In this document: piece by piece, positions 3,883 to 5,118 of the stretch
Position numbering within the stretch: position 1 is the stretch's first letter
Layout of the letters: the number at the start of each line of letters is the position of its first letter
Virus record (IMG/VR): IMGVR_UViG_2663763326_000011
Direction: 5' to 3' (one strand)
Source: a virus
Taxonomy: Duplodnaviria > Heunggongvirae > Uroviricota > Caudoviricetes
DNA length: 17,950 nt
Notes under the pieces: generated by a model
The model's database searches: none
What the model saw: only the letters and a program-made list of their open reading frames with translations
Told to the model about the DNA's origin: nothing
Program-made: the position numbers and the translations under genes

Positions 3883-4057
3883 GCCGACAGGAACACCACA
3901 ACCTCAAAAACGCTACAAAGATGCCCACGGAGCACTCGTTACTGTCGAAAGCGTGTCTCACAACCGAGTGACGTTTTATCGCGACGGGTATCAATCGCCA
4001 TGCGTGCAACCGCTGGCACGTTTCATGAAGGAGTTCGTGGAGGTTAACAAATGCTAA
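3875..4057 (+). CDS. Small hypothetical protein (60 aa)
   Basis: ATG at 3875 with GGAGG at 3864-3868; overlaps the upstream stop and its own stop overlaps the next start at 4051. The ORF-track start at 3788 is an in-frame N-terminal extension without an RBS. Confidence 0.5.
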   Translation: MFKPTGTPQPQKRYKDAHGALVTVESVSHNRVTFYRDGYQSPCVQPLARFMKEFVEVNKC

Positions 4058-5118
4058 CCGCCCAGAAGAAGATATTTTCACTGGCTGGTATGTCGCCAAA
4101 ATCCGGCAATATGACAGCAAAGTCTGGCATTAATACAGCAGATACAAGCAAAGTTTATCATTTTCTGGTGGTAGGAGCGGATGCCTTAACTATGTCAGAA
4201 ATTACGGTCGATGGTGTTAGCGTTGAGAAGGTCAGCGGCTGCGCCAGAGAATTTCTGGTCGTAGATCACCTGTTCTGCTCGTGTAGTGACTCCACAAAAA
4301 CATTCGTCCACGCGCGTGACGTTAACGAAATGAGCGCGATGTACTGTGCTTCTGGTTCTTCCAATAGTGAGTTTTCGGAGTCCATAAAAAAGAGCTTGCC
4401 GTTATGCGGCAACACGGTTTATGGTTATAAGGCACCTCATAAAACGGGTGCCGGGATTGGCGTCCTGAAAATTCTGAAGGCGACATATGACGCGCCGAGC
4501 GTCTTTTTTTATGTCGTAGGTCTGACTCACCCATTTTTTGGGCGTTGGTGTATAATCCAGCGCCTTTGTCAATCAATGGTGGCTCAGGCGGGGGCTTCTT
4601 CGGAAGCGCCGGTATCCTTCAGAGCCGGTTACGCCAACCCTGTCTGGGCTACCACCAGCGAAATTGGCGTTTCCGGTGGTAGCGTAACCTGCTATCTGAA
4701 GGAGGCTGCCACATGCTGGCTACTACCCCTACCCAAAAACCGCAATTTATCTGGATTATCGCCGCAGTTCGCCGCGATTGCCCGACAATTACCGCCAAAA
4801 TTCATCATATTGCTGCCGAGTCTGAACGCGATGCTCGCCGTTCTCTGGTGCGCGATAACGTCTGCTTTTTTGTTGGTCGTATCCGCATGGAGGTGGCACA
4901 TGATTAAAACCTACGATGTGCATATGGACCCCCTCGAACGCACAAGCCAGATCATCACACTGACAGAAGTGATTAATGACATTCTGGTGAGCAGCTCTCC
5001 CTCACGAGACGAAAAACTGAAGGCGTTGCTCGCGATATTGGATCTCGCCGTTCGTGACGTTCATTTCCTGCTGGAAGGTGGCGAAATGCCAGGAAAGACG
5101 GGGGCAACCAATGAATAA
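4051..5118 (+). CDS. Open frame of uncertain coding status (355 codons); probably not a single real protein
   Basis: Well-signalled start (GTGGAGG 7 nt upstream; ATG overlaps the upstream stop). But the frame contains an intrinsic terminator at 4489-4510 and two nested, well-signalled small genes (4713..4907 and 4900..5118). Confidence 0.3.
4481..4516 (+). terminator. Rho-independent terminator-like hairpin inside the 4051 open frame
   Basis: GACGC (4489-4493), loop GCCGA, GCGTC (4499-4503), then T7 (4504-4510); flanked by complementary CGACAT (4481-4486) and ATGTCG (4511-4516). Followed by a -10-like TGTATAAT at 4549-4556. Confidence 0.5.
4713..4907 (+). CDS. Small hypothetical protein (64 aa)
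   Basis: Strong SD GAAGGAGG (4698-4705) 7 nt upstream of the ATG. Charged, soluble-looking sequence. Its stop overlaps the next start (ATGA). Confidence 0.45.
   Translation: MLATTPTQKPQFIWIIAAVRRDCPTITAKIHHIAAESERDARRSLVRDNVCFFVGRIRMEVAHD
4900..5118 (+). CDS. Small hypothetical protein (72 aa)
   Basis: ATG at 4900 preceded by GGAGGTG (4889-4895). Helical-looking sequence ([29 protein letters not shown]...). Same frame as the tail of the 4051 ORF. Confidence 0.45.
   Translation: MIKTYDVHMDPLERTSQIITLTEVINDILVSSSPSRDEKLKALLAILDLAVRDVHFLLEGGEMPGKTGATNE

Follow-up and report, generated by a model that had tools for sequence, protein, structure and literature searches.

The segment between positions 4051 and 5118 of the 17,950 nt stretch of viral DNA analysed here (the window) is very probably the immunity and early-control region of a P4/PICI-type satellite, built like the PLL/PLE-eta-cI-kil region of P4. 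Regulatory RNAs are present in this segment and a long frame across them is kept open in relatives; on sequence, the region is therefore an RNA control region and a translated frame, both at once. The control switch is already known from P4, and the new detail is a copied P22-type packaging site inside it.

The island sits between yicC and yicG of E. coli. Upstream of the segment lies an operon consisting of alpA (2387), an orf (2605), antA (3049) and a DUF4222 gene (3875), and a primase gene is found downstream of kil at 6391, in agreement with the initial annotation, which had assigned the segment to a P4-type satellite, with early genes on one side and replication genes on the other. No tRNA or tmRNA genes were found in the window. 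None of psu, sid or delta is annotated in the identical EcPF7 island, and the island is therefore not a P4-like satellite in the strict sense. The order of int, alpA, Bro-type genes (AntA, Ash), primase and captured late genes is that of Gram-negative PICIs (PMC10111431); the helpers described in that paper are lambda-like, and this island has captured P22-type ejection proteins and a P22-type pac sequence.

The long eta-like ORF (4051..5118, + strand) has an ATG start and 355 codons, spans the IsrK RNA, the C4 RNA and kil, and ends on the stop codon of a 72 aa gene. Its strong ribosome-binding site and its coupling to the upstream gene, both described earlier from the sequence, were confirmed by the ORF listing and the sequence. 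At the coupling junction (4039..4057, + strand, read from the sequence), the Shine-Dalgarno (SD) sequence GGAGG (4039-4043) lies 7 nt 5' of the ATG at 4051, and the frame opened by this ATG overlaps the end of the DUF4222 gene (3875..4057), whose TAA is at 4055-4057. The genes of the upstream alpA-orf-antA-DUF4222 chain also overlap or adjoin one another, so that the frame has the coupled start in an alpA/vis operon that characterizes eta. The P4 counterpart (L024 4169..4813, minus strand) overlaps vis/ORF88 and has kil in frame at its 3' end. In both cases the ORF start is coupled to the gene before it in an operon led by alpA/vis, but in P4 this gene is vis, while here it is the DUF4222 gene, three genes after alpA; the P4 ORF is also shorter, with 214 codons against 355. 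Forti et al. (1999, J Bacteriol) reportedly described the function of P4 eta. As summarized in PMC10111431, translation of P4 eta takes place only on transcripts of the upstream late (alpA/vis) operon and overrides RNA-mediated termination.

Regulatory RNAs and a termination-type immunity region had been suspected in this segment, and both expected RNAs were found, with the boxes through which they would interact. An IsrK / P4 seqA-type leader RNA was identified at 4432..4509 on the + strand (Rfam RF01394, 67.8 bits against a gathering threshold of 50), 381 nt 3' of the start of the long ORF, with the two 5' hairpins, linker and intrinsic terminator of the family. IsrK is described as a structural homologue of seqA in PMC4825925, which also covers CI-mediated termination. 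The canonical hairpin with a T7 tail flagged at 4489-4510 was recovered by a terminator scan independent of Rfam (stem 4489-4503, T7 4504-4510, + strand) and is the terminator of the IsrK match. Just 5' of IsrK, and 3' of the start of the long ORF, we infer a PLE-like promoter at 4396..4425 on the + strand, with a -35 hexamer TTGCCG (4396-4401), an 18 nt spacer, a -10 hexamer TATGGT (4420-4425) and a predicted start at 4432. This element matches the consensus at 8 of 12 positions, below the threshold of the promoter scanner, and both hexamers are conserved in the alignment of 20 sequences (the window, 18 relatives and P4). With z = -5.07, the leader made by read-through (4432-4720) has an unusual degree of structure.

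A C4 / P4 CI-type antisense RNA follows at 4572..4659 on the + strand (Rfam RF01695, 79.9 bits against a gathering threshold of 45, full model 1-87), with the family's long closing stem and its pair of internal hairpins, in a region with 71 % DNA identity to the P4 cI region. Alignment and duplex energies locate its two boxes, b' (4616-4623, CCTTCAGA) and a' (4631-4637, ACGCCAA), on the + strand. These are complementary to two pairs of target boxes on the same strand: a1 (4457-4463) and b1 (4473-4480) inside IsrK, likewise placed by alignment and duplex energies, and a2 (4664-4670, TTGGCGT) and b2 (4695-4702, TCTGAAGG) in a seqC-type target (4664..4705) over the kil ribosome-binding site. Box b2 overlaps the kil SD, AAGGAGG (4699-4705). 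The predicted duplex of the seqC target with C4 is -39.2 kcal/mol. In an alignment of 19 related loci, both box pairs co-vary three-way, and cognate C4-target duplexes have mean energies of -33.6 and -36.1 kcal/mol compared with -23.3 and -25.9 kcal/mol for non-cognate ones, a gap of about 10. The order of IsrK, then C4, before an Icd/Kil-like gene was retained in 18 of 18 related loci and in P4, with IsrK above the gathering threshold in 17 and no match in L021. The Rfam families c4-a1b1 and int-alpA had no match in the window at E <= 0.1, while relatives and P4 match both.

The gene after the RNAs, on the + strand at 4713..4907, is a 64 aa kil / Icd-like gene of the cell-division inhibitor type (NCBIfam phage_ICD_like, NF033153, 69.2 bits against a threshold of 25; PGAP), and its product shares 42 % identity with P4 Kil (E = 5e-10). 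The region therefore resembles that of P4 in the order of its elements, in the register that the long ORF keeps with the CI/C4 RNA, in the promoter-like element inside the ORF just before seqA/IsrK, in the two-box complementarity of CI to seqA and seqC, in having a Kil homologue as the first gene after the RNAs and in the primase downstream. It differs in that kil, which is in frame with the ORF in P4, is out of register here and in that a P22-type terS/pac fragment occupies the 5' part of the ORF. A C4-family RNA with two single-stranded boxes, whose targets lie upstream and over the ribosome-binding site of an Icd-like gene, is also the arrangement of the P1/P7 immI region. Unlike immI, the island has no ant after icd, an AntA-family gene being located upstream at 3049; its upstream target lies within an IsrK-type RNA that has a terminator, and c4-a1b1 is unmatched.

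The initial annotation had also noted a -10-like TGTATAAT. It is present at 4549-4556, where it forms the loop of a conserved hairpin (4540..4565, + strand; arms 4540-4548 and 4557-4565), and was not established as a promoter: the consensus promoter scan called none here, and the motif has neither a -35 element nor an extended -10. The hairpin folds at the same place in 11 loci despite different stem sequences, with 83.6 % of hairpin cells paired compared with <=53 % in slid controls and five pairs in which both partners had changed. The idea that TATAAT is the main promoter was rejected on the absence of a scan call and on its position in the loop of a hairpin with co-varying arms. These observations bear on an account of the region as P1-type control only, in which C4 would be purely a translational repressor of icd/kil expressed from its own TATAAT promoter (4551-4556) and the IsrK terminator would end an independent small-RNA gene, leaving no role for termination-based immunity or for translation of the long frame. 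The hexamer is perfect and is found in seven of the 11 long-spacer relatives, 15-20 nt 5' of C4, the overlap of b2 with the SD is as in P1, and the IsrK terminator is canonical. Nevertheless, L007 and L016 have different loops in place of TATAAT, four short-spacer loci (L009-L011 and L013) lack the whole hairpin and keep C4, and the account leaves the conserved open frame unexplained. Together with the features of the hairpin described above, this makes it unlikely.

The long frame is, judged from the comparison of relatives, no accident. Across 4051-4712 the three frames contain 0, 14 and 13 stops, and the fraction of shuffles of this interval with a stop-free frame was 5e-5. Counted relative to C4 in 19 loci, stops by frame number 107/3/79. 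The same frame is open across both RNAs in 18 of 18 relatives and in P4, with all indels in multiples of 3, and its register relative to C4 is the same in 20 of 20 loci. In every locus the ORF starts 84-849 nt 5' of the IsrK start, mostly with a strong SD. Variable sites in the spacer, C4 and seqC segments of seven Escherichia variants are distributed over codon positions as 15/12/16, so that the comparison of homologues proposed earlier supports conservation of the frame and gives no sign of purifying selection at the amino acid level over the RNA part. An open frame without codon-position bias is the signature of P4 eta, in which translation matters more than its product (PMC10111431).

Conservation of the RNA sequence by itself accounts for part of this openness, and the frame could in principle be a by-product of a purely non-coding region (RNAs, promoter, pac) in which conserved G+C-rich RNAs happen to leave one frame free of stops, with 'Ash family protein' an annotation artefact. 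The Pfam Phage_ASH match to the product (aa 124-232, nt 4420-4746) coincides exactly with IsrK and C4, the lack of codon-position bias in the spacer, C4 and seqC segments points the same way, no family was matched in an NCBIfam search of the 355 aa product, and PGAP annotation is inconsistent: the ORF, named 'ash family protein' in other genomes, is full length in several RefSeq genomes and a partial pseudogene in the identical E. coli genome. Against this, the distance from IsrK to C4 ranges from 98 to 185 nt among loci and is always 2 mod 3, the length differences being multiples of 3. Upstream of IsrK, where the sequences are unrelated, the frame is open for 28-319 codons in 20 of 20 loci compared with 0-53 codons for the other two. 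The ORF is 1068 or 1029 nt long in the seven Escherichia variants despite about 50 % variable sites in the spacer, C4 and seqC segments, among which no stop ever arises, and a 39 nt net deletion in L026 preserves the frame. With translation of P4 eta also reported as functional in PMC10111431, a by-product is highly improbable. Two earlier suggestions are not supported. A gene broken by frameshift was rejected, the ORF being intact and of identical length in many genomes; and the view that the segment is something other than one protein-length frame fails, as 18 of 18 relatives and P4 keep the frame open in a constant register to C4.

Whether the protein sequence itself matters is a separate question. 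It has been noted that C4 and IsrK occur in Gram-negative PICI 'Bro' genes, inside an Ash-annotated ORF (PMC10111431), and the product might be, for example, a 'Bro network' antirepressor, with the RNAs a secondary overlay. Phage_ASH is classed among Bro-network domains (PMC10111431), and the IsrK-C4 module of Salmonella phage 118970_sal3 falls within a gene annotated as a 381 aa 'putative antirepressor'. An N-terminal motif, Q-K-x-F-x-L-A-G, is common to ORFs across genera, and the first 148 nt (4051-4198) show a weak third-position excess of variable sites (5/3/10); these two observations are compatible with some function at the level of the protein. The 3' end of the ORF encloses, in frame, the 72 aa gene (4900..5118, + strand; PGAP), whose variable sites (2/2/8, a third-position excess) indicate a real gene under purifying selection and whose stop overlaps the ATG at 5111 of the following gene. 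However, residues 1-123 have no Pfam family match and about 36 of them are an antisense reading of the terS fragment, residues 222-283 come from reading kil in another frame, no protein-level constraint is seen in the middle of the ORF, and the ORFs of different loci share no homology in their N-terminal parts. A function residing in the protein sequence is thus very unlikely, and the pattern is better read as that of an eta-type frame kept for its translation.

Two small genes had been proposed at 4713 and 4900; both are present, well initiated and called by PGAP in the identical E. coli genome (4713..4907 and 4900..5118). The first is read in a different frame from the long ORF and is thus not nested in frame as in eta. 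In the window and seven of 18 relatives the ORF reads in the +1 frame of kil; in the other 11 and in P4 the two are in frame. Compared with P4, a 1 nt difference before the kil ATG shifts the register, so that the long ORF extends for a further 211 nt and shares the stop codon of the gene after kil. The sequence before 4713 is GCCACATG, and a form longer by 1 nt, GCCGCTATG, would restore the kil register. Sequencing error as the source of the out-of-frame kil was rejected, as the same register is found in independent genomes and genera. The product of the long ORF would consist of the Ash segment, an alternative-frame reading of kil and the 72 aa protein, a combination for which there is no precedent in P4.

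By analogy with P4, P1 and Gifsy-1, promoter use, RNA processing, termination and anti-termination by translation can be assembled into a switch. In the quiescent state, the internal promoter (4396-4425) would produce an untranslated leader from about 4432, and the intrinsic terminator would end most transcripts to give an IsrK/seqA RNA of about 78 nt. The C4/CI RNA (4572-4659) would be processed from read-through transcripts, and its b' and a' boxes would base-pair with the leader sites a1/b1 and with a2/b2 at the ribosome-binding site of kil. A stable C4 RNA, processed by RNase P, would in this way repress kil, pairing leading both to a block of kil translation and to premature termination before the replication genes. 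On induction, transcription would enter from the upstream alpA operon, and coupled ribosomes would enter the 355-codon frame and translate through the terminator, C4 and the target boxes. It is proposed that this translation prevents hairpins, RNA-RNA pairing and Rho entry, so that the operon would be read through regardless of immunity.

The isrK-orf45-anrP region of Gifsy-1 in Salmonella (PMC4825925) is comparable in several of these respects: a terminated IsrK is followed by a C4-like stable RNA (STnc1160), the regulated mRNA is formed by read-through transcripts, and the gene downstream is expressed in coupling with translation of an ORF that lies across the C4-like region. It differs in that orf45 (45 aa) starts after the IsrK terminator, whereas the frame described here starts 5' of IsrK, in that short IsrK acts there in trans as an activator, and in that the downstream gene encodes an antirepressor rather than a kil/icd-like product.

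The packaging-site copy is a 107 bp segment of P22-type terS (gene 3), located on the minus strand at 4199..4305, antisense to the island genes and within the 5' part of the long ORF. It is 86-90 % identical to terS of P22, IME10 and As3 and overlaps the annotated P22 pac. A P22-type pac is a 22 bp asymmetric sequence within terS, and by sequence such a site is found in the pac-equivalent 22-mer at 4284-4305 (TAGTGACTCCACAAAAACATTC on the + strand), which ends the terS copy. This 22-mer matches the annotated P22 pac at 15 of 22 positions and terS of the P22-like phage contigs L036, L045 and L047 at 21 of 22; the 16-mer used as search query was identical in these three contigs. The sister islands L025, L029 and L030 match the terS 22-mer of the same contigs at 22 of 22 positions. 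GAAGGTTTTTGTGGAGTCACTA is carried by a terS allele of P22-like phage. The captured late genes of the island are homologues of P22-type ejection proteins. Nothing specific on satellites of P22-like phages was found in the limited literature searched. As a tentative joint proposal, the island may be a satellite of P22-like podophages (Lederbergvirus) that carries its own gp20/gp16-type ejection proteins and a helper-matched pac, copied from helper terS into an eta-like anti-termination ORF, antisense and in frame, and renewed again and again by recombination with the terS alleles of helpers; the eta-like frame would have been re-registered, its translation bypassing Kil and coupling to the downstream early genes.

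RefSeq carries three different annotations of these 1068 nt: a complete 'ash family protein', a partial pseudogene together with Icd-like and hypothetical genes, or a version left partly blank. With an eta-type frame enclosing IsrK/seqA, C4/CI and kil, about 480 E. coli genomes can be annotated consistently, together with relatives from at least eight further genera of enterobacteria. The set of 20 sequences amounts to a clean natural experiment in which a frame appears to have been selected for its openness and not for its product, and the boxes suggest that immunity specificities have diversified through three sites that change together. Should the pac copy be functional, it would reveal which phage family acts as helper for a widespread island.

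The 355-codon ORF at 4051..5118 (+) has GGAGG 7 nt 5' of its ATG and a start overlapping the stop codon of a DUF4222 gene, and every element listed for it in the initial annotation was present at its place in the sequence. A terminator scan called a hairpin at 4489-4503 followed by T7, TGTATAAT was located at 4549-4556, and the genes starting at 4713 and 4900, both annotated by PGAP, have strong SDs, with the ATG at 4900 sharing the frame of the long ORF. Over 4051-4712 the three frames contained 0, 14 and 13 stops, and the frequency of shuffles leaving any frame open was 5e-5. 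RefSeq labels for the equivalent of 4051-5118 were inconsistent between genomes despite the same sequence. In some genomes PGAP annotates one 355-aa 'ash family protein' and lacks an Icd-like gene, whereas EcPF7, an E. coli strain carrying an identical island region, has a partial pseudogene of that name together with separate Icd-like and hypothetical genes. The Pfam Phage_ASH match (aa 124-232) is exactly the translation of IsrK and C4.

These two RNAs were identified by Rfam matches above the gathering score, IsrK at 4432-4509 (+; 67.8 bits), of which the 3' hairpin is the flagged terminator, and C4 antisense RNA at 4572-4659 (+; 79.9 bits). P4 itself has IsrK and C4 matches in the same order, and the C4 part shares 71 % DNA identity with the P4 cI region. 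According to published work (PMC4825925), IsrK corresponds to seqA of P4, and the stable RNA lying 3' of it to CI. Downstream lies a Kil/Icd-like gene (kil; 4713-4907, +) with an NCBIfam phage_ICD_like match and 42 % identity to P4 Kil. The window was aligned with P4 and with 18 related loci, which were retrieved through the Icd-like protein and span nine enterobacterial genera. C4 boxes b' (4616-4623, CCTTCAGA) and a' (4631-4637, ACGCCAA) are complementary to an upstream target within IsrK (a1, 4457-4463; b1, 4473-4480) and to a downstream target 3' of C4 (a2, 4664-4670; b2, 4695-4702), of which b2 overlaps the kil SD AAGGAGG (4699-4705). This two-site pairing is the seqA/seqB/seqC arrangement of P4, equivalent to a1b1/a'b'/a2b2 of P1. 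The box sequences vary by locus, with the C4, IsrK-site and pre-kil-site versions co-varying. Mean predicted duplexes of C4 were stronger with cognate than with non-cognate sites, both for the IsrK site (−33.6 versus −23.3 kcal/mol) and for the pre-kil site (−36.1 versus −25.9 kcal/mol), and the leader at 4432-4720 was far more structured than shuffled controls (z=−5.07). The earlier suggestion of regulatory RNAs in this segment was therefore correct, given the Rfam matches and the co-varying target boxes.

The accompanying suggestion that the segment is not one protein was only half right. The frame is conserved open through IsrK and C4 in all 18 relatives and in P4 (188-655 codons), always in the same register relative to C4. 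The IsrK-to-C4 distance was 98, 101, 125, 128, 140 or 185 nt, invariably 2 mod 3. From 100 nt 5' of IsrK to the kil ATG, the three frames contained 107, 3 and 79 stops in the 19 loci pooled, and the open run 5' of IsrK was 28-319 codons in this frame versus 0-53 in the other two. The ORF starts 84-849 nt 5' of the IsrK start, usually preceded by GGAGG or GGGGG. Among seven Escherichia island variants the ORF was 1068 nt, or 1029 nt with a frame-keeping net 39-nt deletion, and around half of the sites in the spacer, C4 and seqC segments were variable. Variable sites were evenly spread over codon positions in C4 (15/12/16) and distributed 2/2/8 in the true gene at 4900. The frame is thus selected to stay open, without constraint on the amino acids that it encodes over the RNAs.

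The P4 counterpart of the long ORF is eta, which has 214 codons (4169..4813, minus strand, of the P4 locus L024), overlaps the end of vis/ORF88 and has kil in frame at its end. In P4, a transcript from an eta-internal promoter is soon terminated via CI and seqA and processed to CI, full-length Eta comes solely from transcripts of the late promoter upstream, its translation being coupled to the alpA homologue, and Eta translation prevents termination; C4 and IsrK models also match several Gram-negative PICIs within such eta-like genes (PMC10111431). The window agrees with this model on each point and, for this reason, the region would combine RNA-based immunity with a translated anti-termination frame. 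By analogy, the internal promoter would be used and its transcript terminated and processed, and translation of the long frame would rescue transcription from termination. Three differences from P4 were found, in the coupling, in the kil register and in the TATAAT hairpin described below. The window ORF is coupled to DUF4222, the third gene after alpA, and whereas P4 kil is in frame with eta, the long frame is in the +1 frame of kil because of a 1-nt difference just 5' of the kil ATG (GCCA-CATG versus GCCGCTATG, or GCCATCATG in P4). It continues to 5118, the stop of a 72-aa gene, overlapping the next ATG at 5111. The +1 register is shared by seven of the 18 relatives, and the other 11 have the in-frame register of P4.

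The sequence TTGCCG-18 nt-TATGGT at 4396-4425, with a predicted start at ~4432, is conserved and aligns with the corresponding P4 sequence, presumably PLE; it matches 8 of 12 consensus positions, below a promoter-scanner call. The flagged TATAAT forms the loop of a hairpin with co-varying arms (4540-4548 paired with 4557-4565), which sits between the IsrK terminator and C4 and was found at the same position, with differing stem sequences, in 11 long-spacer loci, and the entire element is missing from four short-spacer loci. Of its cells 83.6 % were paired, versus at most 53 % in slid controls, with five pairs altered on both sides. TATAAT is exact in seven of the 11 loci, and other loops occur in related loci L007 and L016. 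A conserved CACCC-T6 motif (4527-4539) precedes the hairpin, and the loop is usually (G)TATAAT. The hairpin is either a candidate weak C4 promoter or a candidate RNA structural element.

The island (~17 kb) occupies a site flanked by yicC and yicG in E. coli. The stretch 3900-5300 shows 100 % identity to EcPF7 and other strains, and the entire window differs from EcPF7 by three single-base gaps and no mismatches. Its gene order, which is that of a Gram-negative PICI/P4-type satellite, comprises an integrase (1-1269), an AlpA-family regulator (2387), a 143-aa ORF, an AntA-family gene (3049), DUF4222 (3875), the eta-like ORF (4051) followed by a run of small overlapping genes, a TOPRIM/DUF927 primase (6391-9147) and two P22-type ejection-protein homologues, at 10184-11539 (phrog_917, 'released from the phage upon host infection', E=1e-133) and 11524-13641 (phrog_770, 'DNA transfer protein'). 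Such homologues are unusual satellite cargo and would fit a P22-like helper. The annotated genes of the island in EcPF7 include no psu, sid or delta. An Rfam int-alpA RNA motif lies 5' of alpA in four related loci (L009, L017, L019 and L022), with no match in the window at E≤0.1. Relative to the intact EcPF7 gene (2757 nt), the loss of one nucleotide from a G run (~7236-7239) breaks the primase into ORFs 6391..7245 and 7281..9146; the split could be either a genuine frameshift or an error in sequencing the homopolymer. In the sister island L030 (E. coli B4103-1), the ORF at the eta-like ATG, from locus position 1067, is annotated as a single 'TOPRIM and DUF927' protein, implying that a deletion has fused the primase gene with the 5' portion of the eta-like frame.

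On the opposite strand within the long ORF, 4199-4305 has 86-90 % identity to a terS (gene 3) segment of P22, IME10 and related phages, and this homology reaches precisely as far as the distal edge of the 22-bp pac site annotated in P22. The island 22-mer (4284-4305), a putative pac site, agrees with P22 pac in just 15 of 22 positions. A variant one base off the window 22-mer, TAGTGACTCCACAAAAACCTTC, is shared by sister islands L025, L029 and L030 and by three P22-like phage contigs (L036, L045 and L047), whose terS has 91.7 % identity to P22 terS. In eight island variants just two positions of the 22-mer are variable, and the adjoining segment (4266-4277) has three versions, mosaic with respect to phage terS alleles: one is that of IME10, that of the window is one position off P22, and the third resembles g341c and the variant-pac contigs. 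This mosaic pattern suggests that the islands have repeatedly exchanged sequence with phage terS alleles. A Q-K-x-F/L-x-L-A/P-G motif of the long frame, recurring in several genera, lies at the ORF N-terminus (4060-4090) and again at the internal promoter (4380-4405; IKKSLP, −35 region). The two coincide in P4 (L024, ~4700-4740, minus strand), suggesting that in this island an insertion, pac fragment included, has separated the motif copies.

The terS/pac fragment is present in islands of ~485 E. coli genomes and, together with the ejection-protein homologues, points to P22-like phages as candidate helpers; no description of a satellite of P22-like phages was found in the literature searched. 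The architecture is already known from eta/seqA/CI/kil of P4 and has been noted before in Gram-negative PICIs, and two variant features set the window apart, namely the register of kil and the P22-type pac copy embedded in the long ORF.
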